Shown here: piece after piece, positions 19,289 through 62,369 of the stretch | Layout: every line of letters begins with the position of its first letter | How positions within the stretch are numbered: the first letter of the stretch is position 1 | NCBI GenBank assembly: GCA_018302815.1 | Contig: JAGVZE010000012.1 | Location: forward strand, 6,010 to 70,009 | Length of the DNA: 64,000 nt | Reading direction: 5' to 3' | From: Candidatus Woesearchaeota archaeon | GTDB lineage: Archaea > Nanobdellota > Nanobdellia > Woesearchaeales > ARS49 | Notes under the pieces: generated by a model | Told to the model about the DNA's origin: nothing | The model's database searches: none | The model's input: the letters and a program-made list of their open reading frames with translations, nothing else | Program-made: the position numbers and the translations under genes

Positions 19289-19400
19289 ATAAGTTATCGT
19301 CAGAAAGCTATTTTTAAATGTTTCGTGGAAAGAGCGCCGATTGGTTGAATCATTCTTCACAAGAGAAAAACTTATTAAGCGAATGGGAATATTCACGAGC

Positions 19401-20106: not shown

Positions 20107-20366
20107 AGGCGTTTTGCTCCTGCTGAACCAGTGATGCACACCAGCTTATTTTCCGTATTATAATAGACCGTGATGATTTTCTTATATCCTGACTTATTGA
20201 CGCATATCTCGAATTTCTGTTTGCCTATTTTCTCAATCTTATACGCGCTTCGTATCATTTCTCGAAGGAACGCAACATCCCAGCCCCACTTGCGCATCCA
20301 GCCGAGAGCGAAATGTTTTGTTATGATAATCTCGACTGTTTCTATATTCCAGGGAACTTGCATCAT
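20103..20366 (-). CDS. Putative toxin partner (DUF4258-like small protein)
   Basis: 87 aa with a 4-nt ATGA overlap onto the antitoxin-like gene. ITKHFALGWMRKWG...KKIITVYY loosely resembles DUF4258 toxins. Confidence 0.45.
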   Translation of the reverse strand: MMQVPWNIETVEIIITKHFALGWMRKWGWDVAFLREMIRSAYKIEKIGKQKFEICVNKSGYKKIITVYYNTENKLVCITGSAGAKRL

Positions 20367-20503: not shown

Positions 20504-21004
20504 TTACTTCAGCGCTTCGATGCCTTTGTAGAGAGCAACGCCTAATAAAGTGCAAGCGGCTGTTCCTGCAATCACGGAAAATATGGGGCCTAGTATACCA
20601 TTCCAAAGCACGTCATGATCTCGATACGTTTCCCAAGCAGGAACGCCCTTTGGCCTGTACAGGCATAACGGGCACCCGCCAATTTTATGCAAGAAGCATT
20701 GTCCGCGGTTATCAAAAACCTTGCTGATGGTAGGAGGGGGATTGCCAAAGCGGCGGACGAGTTCACGATAGGTGTCCTCGCATTTACGCTTGAAATCATC
20801 GTTATGTTTTTCTTGAGGACTCTCATCCGACAAGGTTTTCTCCAAGCCGCTCGGATGCGTTCCGTTCCCCAATTCTTTCGCGCAATCCGGATGATACGTC
20901 AGTTTTTCTTCGCCTACAAGCTGGATTAAATCTCCGACCGGCTCTTTGCAATAAGAGCAGTTCAGTTTGTCTAAACGCGCGCCGGTGAAGTTGATTTGTT
21001 CCAT
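20504..21004 (-). CDS. Membrane-anchored protein with N-terminal CxxC...HxxC zinc-ribbon-like domain (paralog B)
   Basis: Start refined to MEQINF. Shares the 44-aa N-terminal domain with 18719-19288, but has a different Cys-containing middle region and a single C-terminal TM helix. Confidence 0.55.
   Translation of the reverse strand: MEQINFTGARLDKLNCSYCKEPVGDLIQLVGEEKLTYHPDCAKELGNGTHPSGLEKTLSDESPQEKHNDDFKRKCEDTYRELVRRFGNPPPTISKVFDNRGQCFLHKIGGCPLCLYRPKGVPAWETYRDHDVLWNGILGPIFSVIAGTAACTLLGVALYKGIEALK
20873..21004 (-). repeat. Copy B of the ~130-nt repeat encoding the shared N-terminal domain
   Basis: See copy A (19157-19288). Same strand, about 1.7 kb apart. Confidence 0.8.
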
Positions 21005-21060
21005 ATGGTAAACTATTAACAGGTTATTATTAAGCATTATGTAGGTCGAGTAAATTAGAA

Positions 21061-25800: not shown

Positions 25801-28800
25801 AAAAATCGTGTGATTTCCTAACACATCGAAGGTTTGATTAAACATCAGAGGCGTTGAACCTGTCTGCAAGAGCACTGAATTGTCGAATACTTCAACGAAT
25901 CCTGTCGCGTTGGTTATATTCGCGAATATTGTGACGTTCGTGCTGTTGCCGACTGTTATATTGCCTGCGATTCCAGCTATCGTGAATAGGATACTGCTTT
26001 GCGCAGGGACTATTGTATAGACTGTCAGATTGCTTGTATTCGTGTTGCCTGATGTGTCATTTGCGTACCAAAGAACTATGTGGTTTCCTGCGCTAAGTAG
26101 TGATGTGTTGACTTCGTATGTGTTATTACTGATTTTCGCGGCAGTCGCATTTACGCCGTCAAGTTCTAGTGTCACATTCGCCGCAAGGTAATCATCGAAT
26201 ACGTTTATTCTGAATGTGCTGTTTGTTCCAAATGCTGAGCCGTTGACTGGCGTGATTGTTTGAATGCCAAATGTTGGCGCTATCACGTCGACAACAGTCA
26301 AATTGAGTGAGATATTGCCCGCGCTGTAATTCTGATTGCCGGTGAATCGCGAAGTTATCAAGTAGACTCCGGGAACAGAGATTGACTGGTTAAGATTCAC
26401 TGGCGCGCTTTGATTTGCAAGGAGTGTGTTATTTCTGAAGAGTTCTATTCTGCCTGTCGTGTTTGTTACGTTCGCAAGTGTGCTGACATTGGTATTAAGG
26501 GGCGCGATGAAGTTCGCGGCTGTTCCGTTCAATAGCAAGACAAGTTCAGGCTGCGCCTGTACGATTGTGAACACGCTGGTGTTTGTGCTGTTTTTGTTGC
26601 CTGCGGAGTCGTTTGCGTGCCATTTGAATGTGTGGTTGCCTGCTGCAAGGTTGAATATTGTTATGTTGAAGAATGTGCCGTTGGTGCTTACGTTTGTCCT
26701 GTTTAGTCCGTCAAGTTCCAAAGTTACGTTTGCCATATTTGCGTTGTCTGAAACATTGACGCTGAATTGATAGCTTGCGTTTGGAGCGTAGACTGTTCCG
26801 TTGAGCGGGTCTAGCTGTCCAAATAATACTGGTGCGATAGTGTCAATTACGTTTATTGTCAGATTTGCGCTTGTGCAGGCTCCAAAATTATCGCAAGTTG
26901 TGATATTTAACAGAACAGGGCCGAGTGTTGTTGGAGCTGTTATGTTGATAAGACCGCTCGAGTTATCTATTGGGAACACGCTTGAGTTGGAGCTGAAGTT
27001 GAGCACATCGTTCGTAGGATCGCTGTCTGTAGAGTTGATATCATGGGTGAATAATAGTCCTGCCTGCGCGTTTTGGTTTGTAAGGTTGACTACAACAGGC
27101 GCGTCATTGATGTTCTGCACGGTCACTGTTATGTTCTGTGTCGCGTTGAGTCCTGTGCCGTCGAATAGGTAGAGCGTCATATTTGCTGTCCCGCTCTGGT
27201 TGACTTTGGGAGTTGCAAGCAAAAGGTCTGTGTTGGTTGCTATTGTGATTGTTGCAAGGCTGATGTCAAGAAGCGTGTTTGGATTTGTTTCGTTTGCGAG
27301 GCTGATTTCCCAGGTGAGCTGGTTGTTGTTTGCTCCGCTTCCGTCTTCAGGGTCGAATTCGTATGGTGTTAAATCAAGGCTGGTTGATTGTTCTTCGAAT
27401 GTTGTTATGTTTGGAACGGCTTGCGTGAATCTTGGCGCGTCGCTTGATGCGACTATTCGCAAAGTTGCGTTTGTTGTCGCGCTAAGAAGTGCTGGATCTA
27501 TCGCGCTTAGCATGAGCGTCACGTTTCCAAGGAAGTCTAACGGCGCAGTTATGCGCAGCGTGTTTATTGTTGGTGTGACGTTGAGTATGAATCCGCTTTC
27601 GTTTGCTGACACGGCATATGTTAGCTGTTGTCCGTCTGGATCGAAGAATATCGTGCTGAGGTTGACTGTGAAATTGTTGTCTTCGATGAACGTGAATATT
27701 GGGAAAGCGCTGATGACCACCGGACCATCATTTGTTGCGAGAACGTTGACCGCGAGAATTATGTTTGCGCTGTTGCCCTGATTGTCGAGCACGGATAATA
27801 AGAGCGCGGTGTTGCCGTTCGCGTTCGGCTGCGAAGTTATCGTCAGATAATGCGCGCTTGTCTGTTGCTCGACTGTCACAGTTGCAAGGCTTGTGTTGAG
27901 GCTGGTTGCGCTGAACGTGAATTGTGATGCTAGCGTATCAGCGTCTGTGACGAAGTTCGCAAGGTCAAGTATTCGGAACGCTTGGACGTCTTCTGTTATG
28001 TTTAGAACGGGAAGTGTTGACCAGATTGGAGCTGCTGTTGTTCCGCCAACGCTGACAAGTATTGAATCAGAGGCGTTTGCGCCTTGGCTGTCTGTCGCGG
28101 TGAATGTGAGCGTGTTGGTGCCGTTGAAGTTGAACAACGGAATGAGTGTCGCGACGCTGTTTGTTATTGTTGCGCTAATATTGTTGTTTCCGCTTACGCT
28201 GAATGCGAGAGTCGCATCTTCATTATCATTTGAGTACTGTGAGAGATTGAGTGTTGCTTGTCCATTGAGCGGGATTGTCATATTTGAAGGAAGGTTGATT
28301 GAAGGAAGCGTATTAGTTGTGCCAAGTACTATTGATTCTGTCTGCGTGCCGGCCACATTAACTGTTCCTGAAGTTGTTATGAATCCTTCTTTGATGATGG
28401 TGTACGCGTGTGTTCCAAGTGACACTATGAATGATATCACTCCGTTTAACGTACTCTGATTTTGTCCTGCGAAAATTACTGTCGCGTTGTCGACTCCTGC
28501 TCCTGAGCTGTTTAGGATGTTGAACGTGACATTTGCTGTTTGGATTCCAGAGACTGCAAGAAGTATGCTTGATTCAGCGGTTATTTCTGGTAAAGTTGTT
28601 GCGAGAACAGAATTCGCGCGTGCTTTGACGGTTATATTGTACGTTCCGTTTTGCGCGGCGTTGAATGAGAAGTTGTAGGGCGCGCTGATATTTTCGTTTG
28701 TGTTTGGGAATAATGTGAGGCCGGTTACGCTAAAGACAGTTGTGCTTCCAAACTTCACCATATAATCCACATCTGTTTGCACTGGAGTGGTTGTCTGGTT

Positions 28801-29697
28801 ATTTTGCACGTGGTTGGTTATTTTTGAGTATGAGACGTTGATTTGAACTAGGGCTTGCGCGTTCACCGGCACTGCAGTTAAATCAGAAAGGGTGCTGTAG
28901 AATTGTGAGCTTGGTTCGATGACGTTAAAAGTGCTTTGCGCGCTTTGGTTTTCGCTGTTTGCGCACTGCGTATCGATAACGCTAGTTGTGACACGCGCGG
29001 TGAAGTTTCCATTTTCAGCAGGAACGTATGTGAAGCGAACAGGCACGTTTTGGTCTGCGATTATCGCGTTGCCGTTTGCTGATGTGAAGTTTTGCGTCTG
29101 TGTGTGTATAACTCTGCTTGCGTTCAATATTTCAAGTGTGACCTGCGTGTCTGCGCCCCAGTATTGCTGAAGGAATTGAGAAGGAATGTAAGTCACACCA
29201 GTATTTACTATCTTGAACGCGCTGTTGGTTGTTGAATCAAGGCTTGCGCTTGTATTGACGCTAAGCGGCTGGTTGATTTCTGCGTTGTTGATGACGCTTA
29301 GTGAACCTACTGTCGCACGGCAAGTATTCGGCATTTTTGTGAATGTGTTGGATTCGTTTGTGGTGGCGACGCCGGGCTGTCCGAATGTGTTCCAGTTGTG
29401 TTTTCCTACTTTTGGACGGTATCCGGGTGTTACGAAGAATTCGGCGTACCATCCGCCGGGCGCGGATAAAGTGTCAGGATATCTGAAAATTACGTTTCCG
29501 TCTGTTGCGTTCGGTCCTTTTGTTATGCTTCCTGAGAATGTCTGCACGTTGACACAATTTGTATCAAGACAGTCGAACACTAGGCTCGATAGGTTTACTG
29601 CTGATGTGTTATCTGAGTAGTTGAAGAAATATGTGACGTCTACCGCGCCGAATACTGCCGGCGCGATCAAGAGCAATGCTAAGAGGAATTTTTTCAT
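22876..29697 (-). CDS. Giant modular cell-surface protein (2273 aa)
   Basis: Contains a Sec signal peptide, cadherin-like modules ending in NDGPVV/NDAPVV/SDAPRF (aa ~455-950), four ~184-aa tandem repeats (aa 951-1690), and an N/S/T-rich short-repeat region (aa ~1780-1945). These are followed by a PKD-like domain (aa ~1968-2054), a GGGRGGGRGGGAGGGGG linker and a C-terminal TM anchor. N-x-S/T sequons are extremely dense. Confidence 0.9.
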   Translation of the reverse strand: MKKFLLALLLIAPAVFGAVDVTYFFNYSDNTSAVNLSSLVFDCLDTNCVNVQTFSGSITKGPNATDGNVIFRYPDTLSAPGGWYAEFFVTPGYRPKVGKHNWNTFGQPGVATTNESNTFTKMPNTCRATVGSLSVINNAEINQPLSVNTSASLDSTTNSAFKIVNTGVTYIPSQFLQQYWGADTQVTLEILNASRVIHTQTQNFTSANGNAIIADQNVPVRFTYVPAENGNFTARVTTSVIDTQCANSENQSAQSTFNVIEPSSQFYSTLSDLTAVPVNAQALVQINVSYSKITNHVQNNQTTTPVQTDVDYMVKFGSTTVFSVTGLTLFPNTNENISAPYNFSFNAAQNGTYNITVKARANSVLATTLPEITAESSILLAVSGIQTANVTFNILNSSGAGVDNATVIFAGQNQSTLNGVISFIVSLGTHAYTIIKEGFITTSGTVNVAGTQTESIVLGTTNTLPSINLPSNMTIPLNGQATLNLSQYSNDNEDATLAFSVSGNNNISATITNSVATLIPLFNFNGTNTLTFTATDSQGANASDSILVSVGGTTAAPIWSTLPVLNITEDVQAFRILDLANFVTDADTLASQFTFSATSLNTSLATVTVEQQTSAHYLTITSQPNANGNTALLLSVLDNQGNSANIILAVNVLATNDGPVVISAFPIFTFIEDNNFTVNLSTIFFDPDGQQLTYAVSANESGFILNVTPTINTLRITAPLDFLGNVTLMLSAIDPALLSATTNATLRIVASSDAPRFTQAVPNITTFEEQSTSLDLTPYEFDPEDGSGANNNQLTWEISLANETNPNTLLDISLATITIATNTDLLLATPKVNQSGTANMTLYLFDGTGLNATQNITVTVQNINDAPVVVNLTNQNAQAGLLFTHDINSTDSDPTNDVLNFSSNSSVFPIDNSSGLINITAPTTLGPVLLNITTCDNFGACTSANLTINVIDTIAPVLFGQLDPLNGTVYAPNASYQFSVNVSDNANMANVTLELDGLNRTNVSTNGTFFNITIFNLAAGNHTFKWHANDSAGNKNSTNTSVFTIVQAQPELVLLLNGTAANFIAPLNTNVSTLANVTNTTGRIELFRNNTLLANQSAPVNLNQSISVPGVYLITSRFTGNQNYSAGNISLNLTVVDVIAPTFGIQTITPVNGSAFGTNSTFRINVFDDYLAANVTLELDGVNATAAKISNNTYEVNTSLLSAGNHIVLWYANDTSGNTNTSNLTVYTIVPAQSSILFTIAGIAGNITVGNSTNVTIFANITNATGFVEVFDNSVLLQTGSTPLMFNQTFDVLGNHTIFVRFNGSQNYSESNKTFVIEVIDVRAPIFGNESVNSPNSSAFTGLNTSFRVNITDDTSVSNASLEINGTNVTAQRIFGDTFEANITLAAGNHSYKWFTNDSAGNKNSTNNSVYTLVKATSDLLLTLNNTAGNIDVVQDAVVQVNATLANTSGVVSIFNNGTHVATGASPLLVNITYPDAGVFTITAVFNASQNFSSANISFNVTVLDTTAPIFSSEFVTPSSPANFSPVYTFRRNVTDNVNVTFVFLEVDNQNFTAAQIFNNTFEVNITNLTVGNHSYLWHASDARNNANITSNATYTIVPGTGAVILLINGVNGNTTAQINDTVTITANVTNPAGGFVTLFINGTFAQNGTSPLLNLSNFTDSAAIPILAVYAGDENATAANVTYVLTIIPPISIVSVDPANGAQFNYSSFILSVNTSNSTTCSWSFNDVAQGAMTNNLSGSDITYSANVSGYSLGTLNLSVACNNQSSTSNTDVTYFAQNILDNSIINSSTLNNSIYTSGSAVNTSASSTNLSFTSSTNSGLSSVNGTNSTLLNVTATASAVSNSTLTNCIITNSIVKGIIATNCFFADSFVDPSNLTGTNVTGNSIIEESNVTFSSVTNSTIVNSSISNSTMFQSLITNCAFSGADVQQANITNCVITSGVIAFGNLTYNATISGPANISQLMPAAPIASFTPAITGVNPGATVTFTSTSTDANIPGPLNDSLTFNWTLSDGTNATGNTVNKTFSSLGTFTLNLTVTDSFGFSSIASGTITVSNPPAPSTGGGRGGGRGGGAGGGGGTAIVIELTSTPQLKTVSIGRPLQFSINGVKQPFALVLRRADVSGKTDWVINGVFATVQAGETGLFDLNKDSVPDVEVVSKSVDRSILSATFKLAGVSNADIPFFPTFNLQPRPEQQPAQVTIESETLVPVIVDVPEASEGIGAKLLNAWNALKEKLSTLAESVDTSSQSPVVKIGIVLAIVLSGLVLYEIYLRFE
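24628..26847 (-). repeat. Four tandem ~184-185-aa coding repeats inside the giant protein
   Basis: Units start at IDTIAPVLFG (aa 951), VDVIAPTFG (1137), IDVRAPIFG (1320) and LDTTAPIFS (1504). Each contains LELDG/LEING...AGNH..W..ND.(A/S)GN. Confidence 0.85.
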
Positions 29698-43329: not shown

Positions 43330-43412
43330 CCGTCTTCCGTGCGTGCCGTCCCGCCTTCCTGCCGTCTTGCCGTCTTCCGTCCCGCCGTCCTACCGTTGTC
43401 CGTCCTGCCGTT
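43330..43412 (+). repeat. CCGTC-octamer array 1 (~11 degenerate 7-9-nt units)
   Basis: CCGTCTT CCGTGCGTG CCGTCCCG CCTTCCTG CCGTCTTG CCGTCTT CCGTCCCG CCGTCCTA CCGTTGT CCGTCCTG CCGTT. It ends at the base before the stop codon at 43413-43415. Confidence 0.9.
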
Positions 43413-45465: not shown

Positions 45466-45583
45466 TCCCGCAGTCTTCCATCCTGCTTCATGCAGTCGTC
45501 CGTCCCGCCGTCTTGCCGTTCTGCCGTCCATCCGTCATACTACCGTCTTCCGTACTTGCCGTCGGCCTTCCTACTTCCCACAG
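45466..45583 (+). repeat. CCGTC-octamer array 2 (~14 units)
   Basis: ...CAGTCGT CCGTCCCG CCGTCTTG CCGTTCTG CCGTCCAT CCGTCATACTA CCGTCTT CCGTACTTG CCGTCGG CCTTCCTA CTTCCCACAG. It ends at the base before the stop codon at 45584-45586. Confidence 0.9.
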
Positions 45584-47927: not shown

Positions 47928-47965
47928 TTATGTCGTACCTTTCTGCGCACAAGTATCAATTATCA

Positions 47966-48053
47966 TCCCACTTCCCGCCGTCATTCCGTCCTACCGTCTT
48001 GCCGTCCTGCCGTCATTCCGTCTTGCCGTCAGCCGTCCTGCCGCCCTACCGTA
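47966..48053 (+). repeat. CCGTC-octamer array 3 (~10 units, the most regular)
   Basis: CCGTCATT CCGTCCTA CCGTCTTG CCGTCCTG CCGTCATT CCGTCTTG CCGTCAG CCGTCCTG CCGCCCTA CCGTA. It ends 3 nt before the stop codon at 48057-48059. Confidence 0.9.
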
Positions 48054-48056
48054 TTT

Positions 48057-48683
48057 CTACGCTTCTGTCCAAGAATTGACTGTTGAGCGTTCTGGCGGGT
48101 GCGCTCTGCACTCGCAAAGTGCGTTGCCTGCGTTTGTTACGAATTCGCAGTCAAGGCTTGGAGTGCTAAATGACCCTCGTGTAATGCGAAATGTACCGAG
48201 GTTGTAGCCATAAAGATCCATGTTAAGTGAGGTTAAACGGGCAACGCCGGGAGGCATTCTTATTGTTGTGTGTGTTTCAATTGAAACAAACGCGTCTTCA
48301 GATAGACCGGTTAATTCTCCGGTGACTATGTCTACGCTGCCAAGTGAGCGTTCCATTCCAAAATTAATGCTTGCGACTTTGTTTTTTCCAAGTGTGCTGT
48401 ATCCTGCGGTGACTTCGAGGGGGGTTGCCGCTAATGTATCGTAAAGTTGCGCTGCAGTGTCTGCGCAAGAGCCTGTTGGGAATTGCACTGCGTAAGTTCC
48501 AAGATTATTGTTGATTATGTGGTTTAGCGTGTATGCGTATGTGTCTTCGGTTTCTGTGATTGCAGCGCCTGTTGATTCTGGGTTTTCAACGCTTAAAAGT
48601 GCGAAAAAAGTGACGAGAAAAAAGCTTAGATAAATGTATATCTGGTGTTTCATCATTCCTCTTTTATTCAGTAGAATGAGCAT
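48057..48683 (-). CDS. Secreted protein, possibly a third class-III-signal (pilin-like) protein
   Basis: The N-terminus MLILLNKRG/MMKHQIYIYLSFFLVTFFALLS echoes LQNKKG/M of paralog 1. The remainder has no recognised motif. Confidence 0.45.
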   Translation of the reverse strand: MLILLNKRGMMKHQIYIYLSFFLVTFFALLSVENPESTGAAITETEDTYAYTLNHIINNNLGTYAVQFPTGSCADTAAQLYDTLAATPLEVTAGYSTLGKNKVASINFGMERSLGSVDIVTGELTGLSEDAFVSIETHTTIRMPPGVARLTSLNMDLYGYNLGTFRITRGSFSTPSLDCEFVTNAGNALCECRAHPPERSTVNSWTEA

Positions 48684-50410: not shown

Positions 50411-51226
50411 ATGGCCCCCATAATAACCTGGTCCGATGTGAAACCTATCAAAGTGTTGCATCAGTGGCCGCTCTCCAAAGTAGAACTGGCTCGGGCTAAA
50501 GGCGAATTTTACGTGTTGAAAACTATTCATAAGGATTTCATCAAAGAAATTGATCGTCAAAAAGCCATTCATGCAGTGTGCAAAAAGATAGGAATTTCAA
50601 GGATTCTTCTGGTCCGTAAAAATAAAGGGACTGTTTCTTTTCTTATGGACTATGTTTCTCATAAGAAGAAAAAAGTGCAAGACAAACTCGCGATTAAACT
50701 TATCCGCGAGTTCCATGCAGAAGCGCAGCACGCGCATAGAGCGCCTTTTAGAAAATACAATTTCAAAGCTTTTTGTGCAGACTTCAAACACGTAAAGACG
50801 CATTTGCCAGAAAGCCTGCGGTGTAAAAATAAAATCCAATTGAAAGAATTTTTTGCTCGAATTTTTGATTCGAACCAGAGTGTTGTTCATGGCGATTGGC
50901 ATGCTGATCAAATCATAATAACAAAAGACAAAGAGTGCATTATTGATTTTGGTAAGTCTTTTTGGGGACCGACCATTCTGGATTATGGGAATTATTTTGC
51001 TAAAACAGACAGTAGCGATGAACTTGTATGCAAGCGAGCCGGCATTTCGCGCGTGACTCTTTTGAAAGCCAAGATTGTTGCAGGCATCATAGTGTTGGCT
51101 TGGTTCGAGCTGTGTAAAGCCAAATACGTACCATATAACTACCGGAAGGAAATCAGAGAGTATGCGAACCTGATACGGAACAATGTGCTATTTTTAAATA
51201 GACTTAGCCCCAATAATCAGGATTGA
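50411..51226 (+). CDS. Aminoglycoside/choline-kinase-like phosphotransferase (APH fold)
   Basis: Catalytic loop VVHGDWHADQIIIT and IIDFGKSFWGP (DFG-like). Confidence 0.6.
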   Translation: MAPIITWSDVKPIKVLHQWPLSKVELARAKGEFYVLKTIHKDFIKEIDRQKAIHAVCKKIGISRILLVRKNKGTVSFLMDYVSHKKKKVQDKLAIKLIREFHAEAQHAHRAPFRKYNFKAFCADFKHVKTHLPESLRCKNKIQLKEFFARIFDSNQSVVHGDWHADQIIITKDKECIIDFGKSFWGPTILDYGNYFAKTDSSDELVCKRAGISRVTLLKAKIVAGIIVLAWFELCKAKYVPYNYRKEIREYANLIRNNVLFLNRLSPNNQD

Positions 51227-54141: not shown

Positions 54142-55089
54142 TTAAATGTTGTGTACTACTTTTTGCGCTAAGCGCCATCCGACGGCGGGCCCACTGCTGA
54201 CGACTTTGTCGCTGCAGTTGATTAGGAAACCATCGAGGCGTCTGTAGCATTCCATCGACAAGAACCGCTGTGACGGGGTTGACCTATCTATGAACGGAAG
54301 TGTCCAAAGAATGACTAAGCTCAAATCTCCATCACGTGTTCGTTCGGCAAAGTATTGAATTGCTGGAATGATTCTCGGGTAGTCTCGTCCAAAAAGTTCA
54401 GTGAGGAGCGGTATAACATTGTCAGGTATATGCTCAAGGGTTCCAATCTCGTCTTCTGGCTGATCGAATGCAAGCGTAAGATAATCGTTATCAAGCGCGG
54501 GAGCAATGACTGTTCGCGAATGTCGTGTTCGATTGAGTGCGATATCTTCAAGAATCGCCTGCTCACCGGTGTAGGCGATCTTTCCAGCGATACGCCGGTA
54601 TTGTGTTTCTTCGGATTGATCTTTTTGGTACTCTGCCACTGGACTGCTCAGTAACGGAGCGTCTTTGTGTTCAAACATTGCAAGGTCAATGCTTCCTTTT
54701 ACAAGCGTGCTCGCGATGACAACTCCTCCTGGGTTCATGTCCAATCCTGCAAGCGAGTATTCTAAGTGCTGGTCAGCAGTTCTTCTGATATTTTCGCCAT
54801 TTTTGTACTTAAAAAGTTTTCTGCCATAAACAAGATTCCACGTCTCACCGTTGACGGGCAGGTTGTATAATTGCCAGGCAGGACCCAAGTATTCGTCTTG
54901 TATTGGTTCTACGTAGAAGCCTCCGAGCGCAGTGTAAACGCTTCTTCGAACCGTGCTCGTCGGCTTTTCAGTGAAAAACTCTGTAGCGTACGGAAGACCG
55001 CCGGAGTGTTTGACAAGCGCAACGAGCCGTACAAGCGCAGAAGGGTTATTTGAAGCTTCTCGTTCCAACGCGCGTAAAGCTTCGTCCAT
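54142..55089 (-). CDS. Hypothetical protein (315 aa)
   Basis: Long ORF preceded by TTTATAAA 23-30 nt upstream. No motif recognised. Confidence 0.5.
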   Translation of the reverse strand: MDEALRALEREASNNPSALVRLVALVKHSGGLPYATEFFTEKPTSTVRRSVYTALGGFYVEPIQDEYLGPAWQLYNLPVNGETWNLVYGRKLFKYKNGENIRRTADQHLEYSLAGLDMNPGGVVIASTLVKGSIDLAMFEHKDAPLLSSPVAEYQKDQSEETQYRRIAGKIAYTGEQAILEDIALNRTRHSRTVIAPALDNDYLTLAFDQPEDEIGTLEHIPDNVIPLLTELFGRDYPRIIPAIQYFAERTRDGDLSLVILWTLPFIDRSTPSQRFLSMECYRRLDGFLINCSDKVVSSGPAVGWRLAQKVVHNI

Positions 55090-55111
55090 TTGTCTAAAGC
55101 CAGAGTAGCCA

Positions 55112-55119
55112 TTTATAAA
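55112..55119 (-). promoter_or_regulatory. TATA box TTTATAAA for the 55089 gene (near-leaderless spacing)
   Basis: Same palindromic octamer as at 45451 and 62382. Lies 14 nt from array 4. Confidence 0.55.
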
Positions 55120-55133
55120 GGTTTGTGCACGTG

Positions 55134-55213
55134 CCGTCGTCCGTCCCGCCGTCAGCCTTCCTACTTCCTGCCGTCGTCCGTCCTACTTCCTACAGCCGTC
55201 TTACTTCGTCTTC
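55134..55213 (+). repeat. CCGTC-octamer array 4 (~10 units)
   Basis: CCGTCGT CCGTCCCG CCGTCAG CCTTCCTA CTTCCTG CCGTCGT CCGTCCTA CTTCCTACAG CCGTCTTA CTTCGTCTT. It overlaps the stop and the last four codons of the cyclase gene. Confidence 0.9.
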
Positions 55214-57129
55214 ATGACCCAGACACAATCCCAGTCTTTTCCTGGGTGTTCTTTGATGAAGTGTTCGCAGCGTTCGATGTAGATCGTGGATGTTTTGTCG
55301 CCTTCGTGGACTGCTTTGGCGAAATCAGCGATTGCTTTTTTGAATTCTTTTGCTCGGTAGTTGACAAGTCCGGCTTCGAAGTGTTTGAGTGTGTGTTTTT
55401 GTTTGTCAGTAAGTTTGTCTTTCATTCCTACAAGTTCGAATATGCGTATCGGTTCTTTTTTGCCTTTGACGCGCACAAGATCGAGTTCTCGTGTTACAAA
55501 TGAATCATCGAGTTGTTTTCGTGTGCTTTCGGCGATGAGTGTTTTGACGCCGTATTCTTTTGTTATTCCTTCAAGTCGTGAGCCTAAGTTGATTGTGTCT
55601 CCCATGCAGGTGTAGTTGAAGCGGTTGAGCGAGCCCATGTTGCCTATTACTGCTGGGCCGGTATTTATGCCCGCTCCGATTTCAACAACCGGATATCTTT
55701 CTTTTTCCCATTTTTTTTGGAGTTTCTTGAGTTTGTCCTGCATCGCAACGGTGGCTTTCGCGGCTCTTGTCGCGTGGTCTGGCTGTTCGATGGGCGCGCC
55801 CCAGAATGCCATTATGGCGTCGCCGATGTATTTGTCGACGACTCCTCCGTGGTCCATTATTATGTCGGTCATCGCGGTTAGATATTCGTTGAGTAGTTGC
55901 ACCAGCTTTTCTGGCGTTAGTTGTTCTGAGAATGTTGTGAACCCTCGTATGTCTGAGAAGAATATTGTTATCTCGCGTCTATCTCCTCCGAGTTTTAGTT
56001 TCTCGGGGTTTTTCATTAATTGCGAGACGACTTCTGGCGCGACGTATTTGCTAAAGGCGTCGTGGATGTATTTTTTCTGCTTGCTTTCGTGCAGATATAG
56101 CGTTACAAGAGTGGCTGAATACGTGGTTATTATTGAGAGCGGCGTGTAAACCATATCAGAGATTATGCCTGCATCGAATCGTTTGATTGCTATGATGAAG
56201 TGGATGAGTATCATTAGCGCGCCGATGAATGCTGCGAGCCAAGCGTTAAGTCTGGTAAGCACCAGTATCATTAATAGTCCCGCGATGATTATTGCTGTTA
56301 ATTTCACCGAAGTATTTTGCGGAGTTATGTGCTGCTTAGAAAGTATGGTTTGCACTAGGTTCGCTTGGATTTCAACTCCGGGAATTTTCGCTCCGCCTGA
56401 TAGGGGCGCGAAATGGTCGTCGTGAAGGTCTGGCGCTGTGGCGCCGATTAGGACTATTTTGCCTTCGAATGCGCTGTCAGAAACTTTTCCTGAGATTACG
56501 TCTAAAACCGGGATTGTTTTGTAGGTTTGTTTCGGCCCTGCCATGTTTATGTACAAACGGTCTTGCCGTGGAGCGTTGACATCAGTTATGCTTTTGGCGA
56601 TTGCTTCTGCGAAGAGCAGATATTCGCTGTTTACGTTGTTGTGCGCTGAGCGCACGACTCCGTCGGGGTCTGTGATTAGATTTACTGTTCCTAGCGCGAG
56701 CGCGTTTTCGCGAAGTTCAGCCAGTGGAAGCAGTGAATGTGTTGGCGTGATTCCATTTGCCTGGGTGAATTCAGTGTGTTCAACCGCGAGCACTACGTTT
56801 TTTGAGCGGTTGATTGAATCGGCGAGTGCTTGGTCCGCATCGCTCGTGCTTTGTTCAGAAAAGACGACGTCTATGCCGACTGCTTTCGCAGAATGAAGAT
56901 GGTCTATGACGTTTGCGAATACTGTTCTGTTCCACGGCCAGCGTCCTATCTGTTGTATGCTTTGATCGTCTATTGCGAGTATTATTATGTTTTCAAGGGC
57001 GGAATGTCCGTAAAGCCTATCTTGCATACGCGCTTGTGGTGTGGCGAATATTCCTGCGTAGAAAAGTAGGATAACAAAAAATATGCTTAGAAGTCCTGGT
57101 ACAAGGACTCGTTTTATGGGCAGATGCAT
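55201..57129 (-). CDS. CHASE2 sensor-domain class III adenylate/guanylate cyclase
   Basis: N-terminal TM helix plus an extracytoplasmic CHASE2-like region (ILAIDDQSIQQIGRWPWNR), three TM helices, a cyclase core (ITIFFSDIRGFTTFSE, DKYIGDAIMAFWGAP, GINTGPAVIGNMG, YTCMGDTINLGSRLE), and a C-terminal helical tail. Confidence 0.85.
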   Translation of the reverse strand: MHLPIKRVLVPGLLSIFFVILLFYAGIFATPQARMQDRLYGHSALENIIILAIDDQSIQQIGRWPWNRTVFANVIDHLHSAKAVGIDVVFSEQSTSDADQALADSINRSKNVVLAVEHTEFTQANGITPTHSLLPLAELRENALALGTVNLITDPDGVVRSAHNNVNSEYLLFAEAIAKSITDVNAPRQDRLYINMAGPKQTYKTIPVLDVISGKVSDSAFEGKIVLIGATAPDLHDDHFAPLSGGAKIPGVEIQANLVQTILSKQHITPQNTSVKLTAIIIAGLLMILVLTRLNAWLAAFIGALMILIHFIIAIKRFDAGIISDMVYTPLSIITTYSATLVTLYLHESKQKKYIHDAFSKYVAPEVVSQLMKNPEKLKLGGDRREITIFFSDIRGFTTFSEQLTPEKLVQLLNEYLTAMTDIIMDHGGVVDKYIGDAIMAFWGAPIEQPDHATRAAKATVAMQDKLKKLQKKWEKERYPVVEIGAGINTGPAVIGNMGSLNRFNYTCMGDTINLGSRLEGITKEYGVKTLIAESTRKQLDDSFVTRELDLVRVKGKKEPIRIFELVGMKDKLTDKQKHTLKHFEAGLVNYRAKEFKKAIADFAKAVHEGDKTSTIYIERCEHFIKEHPGKDWDCVWVMKTK

Positions 57130-58160
57130 CTTTGTTGGAGGGTCTTATCCTGATAGTTGCACGCCTGCCCTCCTTGTGCGACTGTGAAGTGTCCGCAGTA
57201 ACTTATGCTAGCTGATGCGGCGGCGTACGCATCAACACAGCCAGTGCCAAGGCCGTCAGTCATTAGCTGGTCTGAGGTTTGTCCGCACGCGGCCCATATT
57301 CTGCATTTTCCGCTTCGCGCGCAAAGTGATGTTGATGCGGTTGCGAGCTGGAACTTTTTGACGTTCTTGATTTCTTTTGTGAGCTTGTATATTCTGTCCA
57401 CTTGGGGCTTGTAAATGCTCGGTACTTTGTTGAGATAGCCGTCTTCAACCGGGTTGGGGTCGTTGTCGACTTGTTCTAGCGTGTCGAGGATTTTCTGGTA
57501 TGAATATCCTTTTGTGGATGCTGCTTTGATTAGGAATGGTCGTTTTTGTATTTCTCTTTCTCTTAGAATCTTGAGTGTTTTGAGGTATGCTGCTTTGTAT
57601 TTGTCGAATCGCGCGCGATCTTGCGGTGTGAGGCTTTGCGCTTCCATTGTTGAACGCAGTGCTTTTTGCATTTCTTTTACTGTGACTTTCTGCGGTCCTG
57701 ATGCGAAGTCTACGACTCCTTCTTCTGCTAGAAGTTCGTTGTCGTTGATTATGAAGCTTGTTCCTCGAACGGTTGCGACTGTGTTTGGCGTTTTGACTTC
57801 AAATTCTTCAACGCCTGTTAGCTTGTTGACTTTGTTCCAGGTTTCTCCTGCTGCTTGTGTTAGCATGACTTTTTTACCTGATACTTCATCGAGCGATAGT
57901 TCGGTGTTCGGTTCGAGGTATACGAATTCGCTTTCTCGGATGACGACGAGAGCTTCTCCGTCGGTTGTCCTGATGGCGTTTCCTGCAGTAAGCTCCATTT
58001 CGTGCGTTGCTGCCTGCCAGCCTGAACCTAGGTTGACTTCGACTGTTCCGCGTTCAATATAGAGGAGCGCGTCAGTTGGTGATGGCGGGACAAGAACCAT
58101 GTATGCTCCAACGCCAATGACTAAAATTAAGACGCCAAGCGCGATTAAGAGTTTGTTCAT
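57114..58160 (-). CDS. FecR-domain protein with N-terminal TM anchor and Cys-rich C-terminus
   Basis: Start refined to MNKLLIALGVLILVIG. FecR-like beta segment (AGNAIRTTDGEALV...FEVKTPNTVATVRGTSFII). The 3' end overlaps the cyclase start by 16 nt. Confidence 0.7.
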   Translation of the reverse strand: MNKLLIALGVLILVIGVGAYMVLVPPSPTDALLYIERGTVEVNLGSGWQAATHEMELTAGNAIRTTDGEALVVIRESEFVYLEPNTELSLDEVSGKKVMLTQAAGETWNKVNKLTGVEEFEVKTPNTVATVRGTSFIINDNELLAEEGVVDFASGPQKVTVKEMQKALRSTMEAQSLTPQDRARFDKYKAAYLKTLKILREREIQKRPFLIKAASTKGYSYQKILDTLEQVDNDPNPVEDGYLNKVPSIYKPQVDRIYKLTKEIKNVKKFQLATASTSLCARSGKCRIWAACGQTSDQLMTDGLGTGCVDAYAAASASISYCGHFTVAQGGQACNYQDKTLQQRCICP

Positions 58161-58251
58161 GTCATTCACACAACGTCTGTTGTTTAAAAAGATTTCGAGG
58201 GATGAGTTTCGCCCCATAATCATTATATATGATAAGCAAAACCAAAAAAGT

Positions 58252-58395
58252 ATGGACGAATCTAAAAAAGAGGCAGTTGAGAAGCTCGCGCGCAACCTTT
58301 ATGGTTTGCACTTGGCTTCGTCTATGGAAGAGGCGCTAAAGCGCGCGCAAGAGATTTTGTCAAGTCAGGCTGAACAGACGCCAGTTGATGAGTAA
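58252..58395 (+). CDS. Small protein (47 aa) whose 3' end is duplicated 2 kb downstream
   Basis: MDESKKEAVEKLARNLYGLHLASSMEEALKRAQEILSSQAEQTPVDE. A TATA-like CATTATATATGA lies ~25 nt upstream. Confidence 0.45.
   Translation: MDESKKEAVEKLARNLYGLHLASSMEEALKRAQEILSSQAEQTPVDE
58306..58395 (+). repeat. Direct repeat copy A (90 nt, 3' end of the small ORF)
   Basis: Matches 60389-60478 at 80/90 positions, including a 46-nt identical core AAGAGGCGCTAAAGCGCGCGCAAGAGATTTTGTCAAGTCAGGCTGA. Confidence 0.9.
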
Positions 58396-60388
58396 GAACC
58401 GCACACCTGCCAGTTAACAAATTCATAGATATTCACTAATAACTGATATCGCATTACAAATTTAGGAAACACGGATGTTTTTTATAGGTTTATACATTAT
58501 AACGTCTGAATGGCGCAACTATCAAACGAAGATGTGCGGCTTGTAAATATTCTTAAATTAAACATTAGCGAACTGAATACAAATTTGAATAATGCGATTT
58601 CAACAGGATCTGCACTGTATTATCCCAGTATGGCGCAACACTGGAGTAACGTGGAGCATATTCTTGGCAATCTCAAAGTATTTGGAGCAAGCAACGATAC
58701 GTTCATGGCGCAGGCAAAATCATTGAGTGCTGATTTTAATCTGAAATCGAACAGTATTGAAGTTGCGGGAAGACAATTGTCATTTACAGAATACCAGAAT
58801 CAATCAGCAAAACTAATAGGAACGATTGAACAAGCCATCAATCAACTACTAGTGACAAGCCAGCCAACCCCGCCCAAGTTATCAACTCCTGCAAACATTC
58901 AACCGCGTTCAACAGGTGAATGGTGGACTGTGCCTCGATTTTTATTGGTGAGGGTTATAGCCGAAGAGACTCGTAAAGCTGCAAGCAGAGGTTTTGCCCA
59001 AACAGAAGCAAAATTGGGTGGAAGCATAATTGCGCCGTACTGTCCGAAATTATATTACGGAATGTCTCGCAGTGGAGCGAGTGCTGGCGATGGTATCTTA
59101 TTCAGAGCTAAAACGCTTGAAACACTTTATTTTGAAGACGCTGCAATGAAATCAACAACGATGGTTGATGCTATTTTGAGGAGAATTCGCATACTGCGCC
59201 AAGAAGACACGCAAATACCGGCGTTCACTCAAGAAAAATGCAGCCTAAAAGAATTCATGCTTGTGTGTTTATGTTTGGGCAAATACAATGAGGTATCTTT
59301 TGATATGGATAACACTGAGATTACCGGCGTTTTCTTGACCGAACGTAAGCTAACTAAGGAAATTGAATTTGAACTTCAACGGGTGCTTGAATTTTTTGCG
59401 CAGGCAAAGGGCTTGCCTGTCTACCTTATCAAAACAGGTAAACAGTTGGACAGCAATCTCAAGATGTTAAGAGAAAAAATGAGGTCTGTTTTTCCAGCTG
59501 ATATCAAAATACCGCCCGAGACTCTTAATATTTACAAAGCGGATAATGACGTATTCAAGATGATTAAGCACGTAAGAGAACAGGGAGGAGATGCGTGGAT
59601 TGATGTGAATTTTCCGGAGATTTTTGGCCAATACCCGGGAAATATAGCGCCGATTAGAATGTATGAATCAAATAACAATTATACTCCTGCAGTTGTTCAT
59701 ACGATATTTTCAAAATACGCGCATGATTCAAGGACGCCTCAATTGATTCAGCCGGATATTCGCTCATCTGATGAAGTTCTATTCATATCATATTCACAAG
59801 ATACTAGCAAGACTCTTAAAAGTCTGCTTGGCAGCAACTTGCTATTCTTCAGAGAATGGAAGGGTATTTCCGTGATAGTTGTACGAGTAAGGGGAACACC
59901 ACTTCAAAATGAGGCATTCATGATTGGAAAACTCAACCCCTCGTTCAGAGAGCCGGAACGTATAACTGGCGCTTTGTCTATGGAGCGCATAAAGAATTAT
60001 GCGAGAGACGCAAAAATGGCAGGACTTGAATCCCTCAAAAAAGTGAGTACTTTTGGAATTCGGCACGATATCAAATCAGATGAATTGTCAAGCTTTATTG
60101 AAACATTATTGATGTGGAATGCTGCTTGTTTGGAGAATTCATCCATGAACGAAAAATTTAGCACGATATTTGAATCCAGAAAGATCGTAATTGGACTTCT
60201 GCAGGCAGAAATGAGATCTAAATACGCCGGATGGACTTTGTATGAACTTGCAGTGCGTTTGGATGAAGTAAAAGACAATAGGTATTCCAACGCGCTTAAA
60301 GAATTAGAACAATCAGCAGATGTAAGACGGGCAGCATAAGTCAGACAATCCGCATAGCATATCAGAACCTCTAAATGAATAAGTACTG
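58396..60388 (+). mobile_element. Candidate inserted segment (~2.0 kb) bounded by the 90-nt direct repeats
   Basis: Flanked by the direct repeats, carries a single orphan ORF with its own TATA-like box, and looks AT-richer than its flanks. No integrase or transposase motif seen, so mobility is inferred only. Confidence 0.3.
58510..60339 (+). CDS. Orphan protein (609 aa), no recognisable domain
   Basis: Uninterrupted ORF with TATA-like TTTTTATAGGTTTATACATTATA 10-30 nt upstream. No catalytic or structural motif identified. Confidence 0.6.
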   Translation: MAQLSNEDVRLVNILKLNISELNTNLNNAISTGSALYYPSMAQHWSNVEHILGNLKVFGASNDTFMAQAKSLSADFNLKSNSIEVAGRQLSFTEYQNQSAKLIGTIEQAINQLLVTSQPTPPKLSTPANIQPRSTGEWWTVPRFLLVRVIAEETRKAASRGFAQTEAKLGGSIIAPYCPKLYYGMSRSGASAGDGILFRAKTLETLYFEDAAMKSTTMVDAILRRIRILRQEDTQIPAFTQEKCSLKEFMLVCLCLGKYNEVSFDMDNTEITGVFLTERKLTKEIEFELQRVLEFFAQAKGLPVYLIKTGKQLDSNLKMLREKMRSVFPADIKIPPETLNIYKADNDVFKMIKHVREQGGDAWIDVNFPEIFGQYPGNIAPIRMYESNNNYTPAVVHTIFSKYAHDSRTPQLIQPDIRSSDEVLFISYSQDTSKTLKSLLGSNLLFFREWKGISVIVVRVRGTPLQNEAFMIGKLNPSFREPERITGALSMERIKNYARDAKMAGLESLKKVSTFGIRHDIKSDELSSFIETLLMWNAACLENSSMNEKFSTIFESRKIVIGLLQAEMRSKYAGWTLYELAVRLDEVKDNRYSNALKELEQSADVRRAA

Positions 60389-60478
60389 TTGCACCTGGCA
60401 TCTTCAATGAAAGAGGCGCTAAAGCGCGCGCAAGAGATTTTGTCAAGTCAGGCTGAGCAGAAGCCGGTTGATGAATAG
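60389..60478 (+). repeat. Direct repeat copy B (90 nt, truncated copy of the small ORF 3' end)
   Basis: Encodes (V)LLHLASSMKEALKRAQEILSSQAEQKPVDE* in frame behind a stop codon at 60380-60382. Confidence 0.9.
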
Positions 60479-60484
60479 TGCCAA

Positions 60485-61207
60485 TCACTTCGTCCTTTTT
60501 CTGAAATAATCGATGGACTGTTGGAGTGTTTCGTATGCACGAATGAAGTCGTTTTTGTTGAATGCGAACGTCACTTGTGTGTATGTTGAAGTTACCGCGA
60601 TAATGTTGATGCTTTTGCGTGATAGCCGATTCATGAAATAGGCATAGACTCCGGGAACATCAATCGAGCGAGGTTTCCCTTTTTGAAGGGTTTCGCGCAC
60701 CGAGATTATTGTGAGGTTCTCTGTTCGTTCAATTTCGTATTTTTGTAAATCTTTTAGAAATACTGAATTTTTCATATCAAGAATAACCGTTATTTCTCCG
60801 GAGCCTTGGTTCACAAAGAATACTTCGTCGTCTTCCCAGTTGATGAGTTTGGATATCTCTGCGAGTTTACGAGAAACTTCATTGTTTCTCTTGAGCGTGG
60901 CATGAACAACATCATTTGTTGTGTATAACTTGGATCCTGCTAGAATTTCCCTCATTGACTCTGACACGCTTTCTTTTTTTGTTGTTTCAACATATCGTTT
61001 GATTGCGACGAAAATCGATTCTGGTGTCGCTTTTGGATTTTCTTTTTTTATCTTGGGCAGAAACTGACGTGCGAGCGCACTGACATTGATTAGGTCTTGT
61101 TTGAGAAGGTCTAAAAGATATAAGTCTTGTTCAATCTCCTCTTTTACAGCATCTGTCGTTTTTTGCAGTGTCAACATTTTACCAGTTATTAGTTTAAATT
61201 TCAACAA
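60485..61207 (-). CDS. Hypothetical protein, possible C-terminal ACT-like domain
   Basis: 240-aa ORF. GEITVILDM...LTIISVRE...VPGVYAYFMNRLSRKSINIIAVTSTYTQVTFAF loosely resembles tandem ACT_7-type folds. Weak support. Confidence 0.45.
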   Translation of the reverse strand: MLKFKLITGKMLTLQKTTDAVKEEIEQDLYLLDLLKQDLINVSALARQFLPKIKKENPKATPESIFVAIKRYVETTKKESVSESMREILAGSKLYTTNDVVHATLKRNNEVSRKLAEISKLINWEDDEVFFVNQGSGEITVILDMKNSVFLKDLQKYEIERTENLTIISVRETLQKGKPRSIDVPGVYAYFMNRLSRKSINIIAVTSTYTQVTFAFNKNDFIRAYETLQQSIDYFRKRTK

Positions 61208-61241
61208 AAAGTCTAAATATTTAATACTTTGCCTGCATTGT

Positions 61242-61529
61242 ATGTGCGGATCAATGTATCAAGAACCAAGAAGGATAACCAAAGAAGAAGCTGAAAAGCG
61301 GCTTGAAGAACGGGCAAGAGAATCAAGGGAAGGATACTCAGTTCAGACTTGGTTCAAGTTATCGCTTCCATTTGGTATGCTCCAGCACACTCGCGAGCTG
61401 GATTTGCTTCTCGAAGCGGCAGAACGTCCATTCCATCTTCGGCCAACGATGTATGCCTATTCGCTGCTTGGAGACGCCGTTAAACTGTACTGCTTTTACA
61501 AGGCAGCACAAGCATTGATGAGTAGTTGA
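61242..61529 (+). CDS. Hypothetical protein
   Basis: 95 aa from the ATG at 61242 (MCGSMYQEPRR). No motif recognised. Confidence 0.3.
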   Translation: MCGSMYQEPRRITKEEAEKRLEERARESREGYSVQTWFKLSLPFGMLQHTRELDLLLEAAERPFHLRPTMYAYSLLGDAVKLYCFYKAAQALMSS

Positions 61530-61625
61530 ATAATACTTCAACCATAATGCGCTGAACGAACTGATTGTCTGCCCGCTATCCTTCAAACCACACACTATAT
61601 ATAGACCGTTTTCTTATGCATCTGT

Positions 61626-61949
61626 ATGAAAAAAGTGAGTCGGGCTCTTGCGAAGGCAAGAGGTAAGGTTGCAGTTCTTGGACGTGTAAGAAAGACTGCT
61701 CGTAAGGTTGGGCGCAAGGTCAAGTCTATTAGTAAGGGCATGGCAAGGGATGCTCGTTCTGCAAGATTGGATAAGGCTCACGCCCACAAAGTTCACGAGC
61801 AAGTTCAGTTCGACGTGAAGGCGCACAAGCTTGAACAAGGCATGGTCAAAGATGCCATGCATGAAGTGGATGAATTGAAGTGCGCAGCTGACGATTTGAA
61901 GTTCTTGGCAGATACTGCAAGAAAAGTTAAGAATTCTAAGAAGAAATAA
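61626..61949 (+). CDS. Small highly basic protein
   Basis: 107 aa, K/R-rich N-terminus (KKVSRALAKARGKVAVLGRVRKTARKVGRKVK), helical C-terminus. Confidence 0.4.
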   Translation: MKKVSRALAKARGKVAVLGRVRKTARKVGRKVKSISKGMARDARSARLDKAHAHKVHEQVQFDVKAHKLEQGMVKDAMHEVDELKCAADDLKFLADTARKVKNSKKK

Positions 61950-62230: not shown

Positions 62231-62369
62231 CCGTCTTCCATCCTAGTCCAACTTCCTACGGCCGTCCAGCCATCCTACCGTCGTCCGTCCCGCCGTTCTC
62301 CGTACTTGCCGTCCACCGTCAAGCCGTCCTGCCCTACGTGCCATCCATCCGTCCCGCCGTCGTCCGCCC
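62231..62369 (+). repeat. CCGTC-octamer array 5 (~18 units, the longest)
   Basis: CCGTCTT CCATCCTAGT CCAACTT CCTACGG CCGTCCAG CCATCCTA CCGTCGT CCGTCCCG CCGTTCT CCGTACTTG CCGTCCA CCGTCAAG CCGTCCTG CCCTACGTG CCATCCAT CCGTCCCG CCGTCGT CCGCCC. It runs directly into TTTATATA. Confidence 0.9.

Follow-up and report, generated by a model that had tools for sequence, protein, structure and literature searches.

Repeat architecture at the micro-gene locus

The 64,000-nucleotide (nt) stretch of Candidatus Woesearchaeota contig JAGVZE010000012.1 analyzed here (hereafter, the window) contains a 2,083-bp segment that begins within the 3′ end of a 47-amino-acid (47-aa) micro-gene and carries a single open reading frame (ORF), an orphan gene (ORFan) for a protein of 609 aa. 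The window is archaeal chromosome, encoding ribosomal protein L15e, a family-B DNA polymerase, Lhr helicase, DnaK/DnaJ, and glutamine synthetase, and the host is a Woesearchaeota-like DPANN archaeon. Contigs identical to the window were present in Rifle aquifer metagenomes, namely JGI 3300002223 and 3300002502 and the ANAN16 samples SAMN03842431, SAMN03842437, SAMN03842440, and SAMN03842441. Along the locus, a FecR-like gene is followed by the micro-gene, the ORFan, a second, partial copy of the micro-gene's end, and a host gene for a 230-aa protein. The features are collected in Table 1.

The segment is bounded by two direct repeats, copies A and B, which are identical at 80 of 90 positions. 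Both contain a perfect 46-nt core, which is present exactly twice in the window, whereas shuffled sequences gave an expectation of zero. All 10 differences between the copies are confined to two 22-nt arms (P ~0.005 at the nucleotide level and 0.003 at the codon level); seven are synonymous, one exchanges one stop codon for another (TAA/TAG), and only two are non-synonymous (E26K and T43K). Similarity between the copies starts abruptly at codon 19 of the micro-gene and runs to the stop codon. Copy B stands two codons downstream of an in-frame TAA (60380–60382), and sequence comparison found no promoter, first 18 codons, or any further similarity upstream of it. The initial annotation of this DNA had described 90-nt repeats with 80 matching positions and a 46-nt core, a peptide (LHLASS) encoded differently in the two copies, and a downstream copy reduced to a truncated remnant behind a stop codon. 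The coordinates, the counts, and a codon-by-codon comparison bear out this description in full.

Table 1. Features of the micro-gene locus (positions in the window).
Feature	Position	Strand	Details or basis
47-aa micro-gene, occupied (attL-like hybrid) form	58252–58395	+	ORF and sequence
Repeat copy A (attL-like)	58306–58395	+	Host left arm 58306–58327, core 58328–58373, element right arm 58374–58395
Segment of 2,083 bp that the window has and the empty allele lacks	58374–60456	+	Comparison with scaffold L024
Upstream region of the ORFan, 114 nt	58396–58509	+	Read directly; putative function
609-aa ORFan	58510–60339	+	Sole ORF in the 1,993 nt between the copies
Repeat copy B (attR-like micro-gene remnant)	60389–60478	+	Element left arm 60389–60410, core 60411–60456, host right arm 60457–60478
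Flanking host gene, 230-aa ACT-domain-like protein, outside the element	60485–61177	-	Homologues and genomic contexts

The ends of the segment carry no terminal inverted repeats, and the core folds no better than shuffled sequence (z = 0.28), so that the putative attachment (att) region has no special secondary structure. The make-up of the segment is compact, comprising an 89-bp repeat, a 114-nt promoter region, the ORF, and a 49-nt spacer without any pseudogene debris, which speaks against the random decay of a larger element.

Two further proposals concerning the repeats were rejected. A supposed third, degenerate copy near 61500–61527 (TTGATGAGTA) scored 20–21, against a 95th percentile of 20 for random window segments. 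It is the conserved C-terminus of a 95-aa host protein, and a second insertion consisting of the block of 230-aa and 95-aa genes was likewise rejected. Readthrough or frameshifting from the 609-aa ORF into copy B is blocked on every route by several stop codons.

Occupied and empty alleles in one aquifer population

Among contigs encoding an identical 230-aa protein, we found a 1,946-nt scaffold without Ns (L024, from ERZ28563622) in sample SAMN03842441, which belongs to the same Rifle aquifer population. It joins window positions 57888–58373 directly to 60457–61916 and is identical to the window at 1,945 of 1,946 positions. The sole mismatch is a single-nucleotide polymorphism (SNP), 61893 G>T, which changes Asp to Tyr in a 107-aa protein and at which the outgroup described below has G. 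In this near-isogenic strain, an intact 47-aa gene lies 6 nt past the stop codon of the 230-aa gene, in convergent orientation, with the FecR-like gene next in line. The micro-gene of L024 is composed of the left arm of copy A, the core, and the right arm of copy B, and its product ends in ...AEQKPVDE; the assignment of arms to host and element in Table 1 is based on this empty site. In the occupied form, the last seven codons and the stop codon are supplied by the inserted DNA, and the product ends in ...AEQTPVDE instead. Within the core, the ends of the 2,083 bp can be placed in any register, 58328–60410 being equivalent. An empty site in which an intact small gene directly precedes the gene at 60485 had been predicted at the outset, and L024, which is the window minus 58374–60456, is such a site.

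A contig from an independent assembly (L026, k=141) carries the same SNP, 61893 G>T, and ends exactly at 60411, the first base of the core. Since k=141 is far longer than the 46-nt core, the repeat alone cannot break this contig, but an assembly-graph branch separating the occupied from the empty allele could do so. In the Logan unitigs built at k=31 (L005, L025, and L028), the 46-nt repeat itself forces the ends, and these unitigs are uninformative about the alleles. No fewer than eight contigs, the longest reaching 71 kb, carry the occupied form without any change; they come from several samples and three assemblers. The 2,083 bp is a real presence/absence polymorphism with its ends inside the core, and it arose by reciprocal recombination inside the core. 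Either the repeat or the empty site could in principle be an assembler chimera, as these are short-read metagenomes and several contigs (the three k=31 unitigs) end inside the repeat. We consider such an artifact extremely improbable, given that the occupied form is identical in all of those contigs regardless of sample and assembler, the 71-kb ones included, that the k=31 ends fall exactly where the 46-nt repeat predicts, and that the empty form is free of Ns and has a SNP of its own, shared with a k=141 contig that breaks at the core edge. As a separate observation, L024 and L026 both end 23 nt past 61893, which suggests that further strain-level divergence begins at about that point.

Relatives of the locus were few. 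In the protein collection, the micro-gene has only two other homologues, P0002 (91%) and P0003 (83%), and both of their genes occupy the same position beside a FecR-like gene. A more distant relative, L007 (Logan SRR24472958/9), provided an outgroup with 83% identity in the micro-gene and ~79% nucleotide identity in the flanks. Positions 622–1132 of L007 hold the micro-gene, 91 nt, and then a homologue of the 107-aa gene, without the 609-aa gene. The L007 micro-gene product ends in ...AEKPVGE, sharing its K with the host right arm in copy B, and the core of this lineage differs from that of the window at 7 of 46 positions (counted by eye). The core is therefore not intrinsically invariant, and the identity between copies A and B reflects recombination history. 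Between L007 and the window, the 3′ side of the micro-gene is also the junction of a second, independent rearrangement. Just 3′ of the element-derived stop codon, AACCGCACAC (58396–58407) matches L007 at ~813–822, upstream of the TATA box of the 107-aa gene. This match may be a vestige of the donor context of the gene-end copy, though it is marginal (p = 0.04) and we do not rely on it.

The alignment of the FecR-like protein and a degenerate micro-gene DNA pattern yielded no further relatives or empty sites among metagenome and genome contigs, in collections that apparently do not hold the window's own contig, and a match to a Qipengyuania genome in the searches for relatives was dismissed as chance. 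Two patterns applied to viral contigs gave no match, and no related att-bearing element was found in IMG/VR.

Closer contigs revealed mosaic haplotypes. L017 (ANAN16 SAMN03842437 scaffold_109896) is 100% identical to the window at 55038–55800 and 58288–58752 and only ~88% identical across 55800–58287, an interval that takes in the cyclase and FecR-like genes and the initial third of the micro-gene. On the right-hand side, identity resumes 18 nt before the repeat. L008 has another version of the micro-gene promoter and first codons, followed by an identical element junction. The left junction, 100% identical from 58288 on, is found on the three flank haplotypes of the window, L017, and L008. 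Furthermore, two sites 47 nt apart, 58287 and 58334, one of them in the att core, are found in each of the four possible allele combinations across the window, L017, L021, and L008, indicating recombination, or recurrent mutation, within the micro-gene. Together, the mosaic haplotypes and the four allele combinations show that homologous recombination is frequent at this locus.

These data can also be read in terms of a resident locus, in which the 609-aa gene lay between micro-gene copies from an old tandem duplication, purifying selection acted on both copies, gene conversion made their core uniform, the downstream copy lost its 5′ part, and the empty allele is a recent deletion through recombination of the repeats. 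The mostly synonymous differences in the arms would fit two once-functional paralogues, the empty haplotype carries a derived SNP, occupied contigs outnumber empty ones 8 to 1, recombination is clearly frequent in the population, and no mobility gene is present. We nevertheless find this history unlikely, as the closest outgroup has a single micro-gene and no 609-aa gene, and the latter has no homologues in any relative or elsewhere. Moreover, the missing 18 codons and promoter left no trace upstream of copy B, and a conversion tract ending symmetrically inside an 89-nt homology is ad hoc.

The ORFan, its neighbors, and other window features

The ORF fills 88% of the segment. As 609 open codons in DNA of 40% G+C do not make a chance ORF, we treat it as a real gene, of unassigned function. 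A TATA-like box, TTTTATAGG, is located at 58480–58488, with its center ~26 nt 5′ of the ATG; the micro-gene has its own box, ATTATATAT at 58222–58230, with the same spacing, and a comparable box lies upstream of the nearby 107-aa gene (61626–61949). This TATA-to-ATG spacing suggests that the ORFan mRNA would be leaderless, like those of neighboring host genes. The protein is soluble, having a mass of 68.8 kDa, an isoelectric point (pI) of 8.8, and no transmembrane segment.

We searched extensively for relatives of the 609-aa protein. Only the protein itself was recovered among 5.8 billion clusters (word-indexed search) and among 1.84 billion representatives (full phmmer search). Pfam, queried with the whole protein and with four segments at E ≤ 10, returned nothing useful and no recombinase match, and there was no match in PHROGs, NCBIfam, or the PDB sequences. 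PADLOC returned only Csx1 (E = 0.013, 12.9 bits), which was below threshold and was disregarded. Searches by tblastn against plasmids, phages, and IMG/VR found nothing, and neither the window nor the retrieved loci contain a paralogue. Inspection of the protein for motifs was equally negative: there was no Walker A, HUH, or CxxC motif, no recognizable catalytic motif of a recombinase, nuclease, primase, helicase, NTPase, or replication initiator (Rep), no DDE, HUH, or serine transposase domain, and no LAGLIDADG, HNH, GIY-YIG, or PD-(D/E)xK domain, the 90-nt duplication also being unlike a homing endonuclease gene. Within the element, we identified neither a rolling-circle Rep motif (HUH, catalytic Y context) nor an origin hairpin. 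Two single-sequence AlphaFold models were unusable (predicted local distance difference test scores, pLDDT, of 39.5 and 35.0), which reflects the lack of an alignment, and Foldseek with residues 1–116 returned only generic helical bundles, none at E ≤ 0.001. The initial annotation had placed a single 609-aa ORF with its own TATA-like box in the 1,993 nt between the repeats and had seen no integrase, transposase, HUH, or DDE signature. The ORF and its box are as it described, and no such signature appeared in the Pfam, NCBIfam, PHROGs, PADLOC, or PDB searches. A confident match to a housekeeping family, which it had named as counterevidence, was not obtained, no homologue at all being found and Foldseek being uninformative.

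The nucleotide composition of the ORFan is somewhat unusual. Its G+C content is 0.406 and its third-codon-position G+C (GC3) is 0.374, as compared with 0.459 ± 0.026 and 0.463 ± 0.044, respectively, for 46 window genes, which places the ORFan G+C ~2 standard deviations (SD) below the window-gene mean. This low G+C is compatible with a foreign origin and does not establish one. Codon usage was rejected as evidence of foreign origin, as the distance of the ORFan is normal for a plus-strand gene; the measure does not discriminate because plus-strand genes lie far from a window mean that is dominated by minus-strand genes. The earlier claim of an AT-richer insertion thus stands as far as the ~2 SD are concerned, but host genes are equally low and codon usage is unremarkable.

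The ORFan might itself be the mobility gene. On this account, the segment would be a self-contained, 2.1-kb minimal integrative element, with the ORFan as a new recombinase and/or replication initiator acting on an 89-bp recoded mimic of the gene end. The ORF makes up 88% of the element and has its own promoter directly after the att segment, the protein is basic (pI 8.8), and the Reps of small archaeal plasmids often have no detectable relatives. We judge this account to be quite unlikely, as the protein has no catalytic motif of a known recombinase, nuclease, primase, or NTPase, the predicted structures were unusable, and a protein family so successful should have relatives, of which none exist.

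The surroundings of the segment consist of host genes. As tRNA and Rfam scans of the 64-kb window gave no match, the insertion target is not an RNA gene. The flanking 230-aa protein has 13 homologues with 40%–79% identity, one of them named Candidatus Woesearchaeota by its source, and gave weak ACT and aspartate-kinase C-terminal matches; it is a conserved protein of Woesearchaeota. Its gene converges with the micro-gene across a gap of 6 nt, which leaves no intergenic space for an insertion. The same gene and its divergently transcribed 95-aa partner are found together, in a different context, in another genome (L009); given this co-occurrence and the homologues, the pair are host genes and not part of the insert. 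The 5′ neighbors of the micro-gene are the FecR-like gene and then a CHASE2-adenylate/guanylate cyclase gene. These two genes, encoding a CHASE2 sensor/class III nucleotidyl cyclase and the FecR-like protein (55201–58160, minus strand), overlap by 16 nt in an apparent operon divergent from the micro-gene, and the micro-gene might be functionally tied to this signaling pair.

Other repeats were noted across the window. A second direct repeat (19157–19290 and 20873–21006) spans 134 nt with 84% identity and a spacing of 1,716 nt. It corresponds to the common N-terminal domain (59% aa identity over 74 aa, CxxC...HPDC) of two minus-strand paralogues, 18719–19402 and 20504–21037, whose C-terminal halves differ. 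The differences in this repeat are scattered, unlike the core-plus-arms pattern of the 58306/60389 repeat. Between the two paralogues lie three small ORFs, including a Zn-ribbon/AbrB-like ORF (19771–20139) that overlaps a small upstream ORF (20103–20366), and these two are possibly a toxin-antitoxin-like pair. C-rich tracts with a period of ~8 nt (GCCGTCNT-like) occur at four places in the window (43334–43407, 45488–45538, 47958–48063, and 62261–62369), seemingly in gaps between long ORFs. Finally, a giant ORF of 2,273 aa (22876–29697, minus strand), which probably encodes a repetitive surface protein, has internal repeats with a 552-nt period (25450, 26002, and 26554).

Origin of the segment and comparison with known systems

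Taken as a whole, the evidence leads us to regard the 2,083 bp as probably a small integrated element, or circularized foreign DNA, that entered a Woesearchaeota-like chromosome by one reciprocal crossover, with a host catalyst preferred. The incoming DNA would have carried an 89-bp diverged, mostly synonymous copy of the micro-gene's last 29 codons, including the 46-bp identical core. A crossover within the core, between the 3′ part of the host micro-gene and the element's copy, would have produced copy A from the host left arm, core, and element right arm, leaving the micro-gene intact with one K-to-T change, and copy B from the element left arm, core, and host right arm, leaving a nonfunctional remnant. 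Precise removal of the element would then follow from recombination of copy A with copy B. As the arm differences are mostly synonymous, the element's copy would have diverged as a working coding sequence in another lineage, and its donor was presumably the micro-gene of that other lineage. The central identity may reflect selection for recombination proficiency, or a central exchange during earlier cycles of integration and excision with staggered crossovers. The 609-aa protein would most likely have an extrachromosomal replication or maintenance function, or be pure cargo; its mRNA, leaderless, would be transcribed from a promoter of its own. In this explanation, we infer the circular intermediate, a gain of the segment as opposed to a loss, and the catalyst, whereas the arrangement of the repeats, the exact empty allele, the lack of the gene in L007, and the lack of a recognizable recombinase or replicase in the element are observed. 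In support of a foreign element, the 609-aa protein has 0 homologues, as compared with 13 for the neighboring host gene.

The catalyst that we prefer would be host homologous recombination acting on the 46-bp identity ("pop-in/pop-out"), which is favored because no recombinase was recognized in the element or in the window ORFs scanned and recombination is evident in the population. Next in order of preference would be an integrase acting in trans, the segment then being a non-autonomous or degraded site-specific element moved by a tyrosine or serine integrase from a helper element, a virus, or a deleted part of the element itself. A 46-bp att core over the 3′ end of a gene falls in the size range of SSV/pNOB8-type elements, the architecture matches that of prophage e14 in icd, and both excision and insertion are precise to the base. 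We hold this to be possible though doubtful, as no integrase is present in the element or in the window ORFs that were scanned, IMG/VR contains no related att-bearing element, gene debris of a larger degraded element is absent, and the core lacks special secondary structure. The initial annotation had interpreted the duplicated gene end as a scar of site-specific integration. The empty site and the junctions are as that interpretation expects, but host homologous recombination on 46 identical bases gives the same products.

Several points weigh against the entry of a foreign element by a host-catalyzed crossover. The empty allele is known from one contig only, plus one supporting contig end, and, given that its SNP, 61893 G>T, is derived, it may have arisen secondarily, when an occupied ancestor lost the segment. 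The outgroup L007 also has no 230-aa or 95-aa gene, so that its locus is rearranged and does not offer a clean empty site. Low G+C is shared by the conserved host gene at 60485–61177 (0.394) and by the gene at 50411–51226 (0.401). All copies of the 609-aa gene are identical and therefore provide no evidence, from the ratio of non-synonymous to synonymous substitution rates (dN/dS), of selection on the protein. No recombinase or replicase is recognizable in the element, none was found in the ~30 window ORFs scanned, and no integrase is located near the element. Lastly, neither an attP junction nor a free circle was seen among the assembled contigs, which cannot display one (L005 being a core-bounded k=31 unitig).

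DPANN archaea are uncultivated, and to our knowledge the ways in which they acquire genes are almost completely uncharacterized. Much of their coding capacity consists of ORFans. With both alleles present in one aquifer population, the gain or loss of an ORFan has been caught in the act, with the landing gene repaired and with no recognizable mobility enzyme in its precise entry or exit. The locus provides a set of attB, attL, and attR from a natural population, defined to the base and without a known mobility gene. If host recombination on 46 bp suffices, such "gene-end mimics" could be a general, integrase-free route of gene flow in small-genome archaea, and mobile-element finders that are keyed on integrases would miss these elements. 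If the ORFan were instead the catalyst, it would represent a new enzyme family, and if the element were truly self-contained, it would be the smallest autonomous integrating element known in archaea.

Comparison with known classes of mobile DNA places the segment closest to integrative elements and Campbell-type integration. Like integrative elements, it is flanked by att repeats that share an identical core and has a corresponding attB (L024), and it lacks an element-encoded tyrosine or serine recombinase. From transposons and insertion sequences it differs by having no terminal inverted repeats, a duplication that is 90 nt long and imperfect, and no transposase domain, and from homing endonuclease genes by the absence of a nuclease domain and the presence of a flanking duplication. 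Integron cassettes are alike in being single-ORF units of 0.5–2 kb that have one recombination site and a recombinase encoded elsewhere. They are unlike it in being bacterial and usually promoterless, with a palindromic attC and an attI beside intI, whereas here the core does not fold as a palindrome (z = 0.28), the ORF has a TATA box and thus its own promoter, no integrase is nearby, and the site mimics coding sequence of the target gene.

Among archaeal systems, elements of the SSV1/pNOB8 type have direct att repeats of ~40–50 identical bp over the 3′ part of a gene and show presence/absence polymorphism among strains. Their targets are almost always tRNA genes, and they are many kb long and encode a tyrosine recombinase, which is split on integration in the SSV type. 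The present segment is similar to these in the size of its att repeat, in the overlap with a gene 3′ end, and in its strain polymorphism; a tRNA target, a tyrosine recombinase, and a length of many kb were not found here. Small cryptic archaeal plasmids resemble it in size and in having a dominant large replication gene, and their Reps are often unrecognizable by sequence (PMC5988781). Plasmids of the pTN1 family are 3.1–3.4 kb with only two ORFs, and pTP2 is 2.0 kb, with a RepTP2 that gave no informative prediction (PMC5988781). In contrast to our segment, which is known only in integrated form, pTN1 and pTP2 are known as free rolling-circle plasmids, and pTP2 has several ORFs.

A close parallel in gene structure is offered by prophage e14 in icd, where a 163-bp pseudo-icd′ remains behind and the terminal codons are supplied by the element (PMC6379469). 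Like e14 and phage 21 in Escherichia coli icd, the segment is inserted in the 3′ end of a protein-coding gene, its substitute end preserves the gene with a conservative change, and the displaced pseudo-3′-end remains as the second direct repeat. The substitute icd end, too, differs largely by synonymous changes. Unlike the segment, e14 and phage 21 are bacterial prophages of 15–40 kb with an integrase and an excisionase; here we see 2.1 kb with one ORFan and no recognized integrase, in an archaeal host and in a target gene of 47 codons.

Campbell-type plasmid integration yields the same products. The segment shows the direct duplication of a shared stretch, the crossover within perfect identity, and the precise loss between repeats that restores a single copy. 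Known examples are for the most part laboratory genetic tools or large plasmids that share insertion sequence copies. We know of no described class in which the homology of a natural 2-kb element is limited to an 89-bp coding imitation of the end of a host gene. The element behaves like an e14-type gene-end replacement or a Campbell-type integration, reduced in scale to a single gene of a DPANN archaeon.

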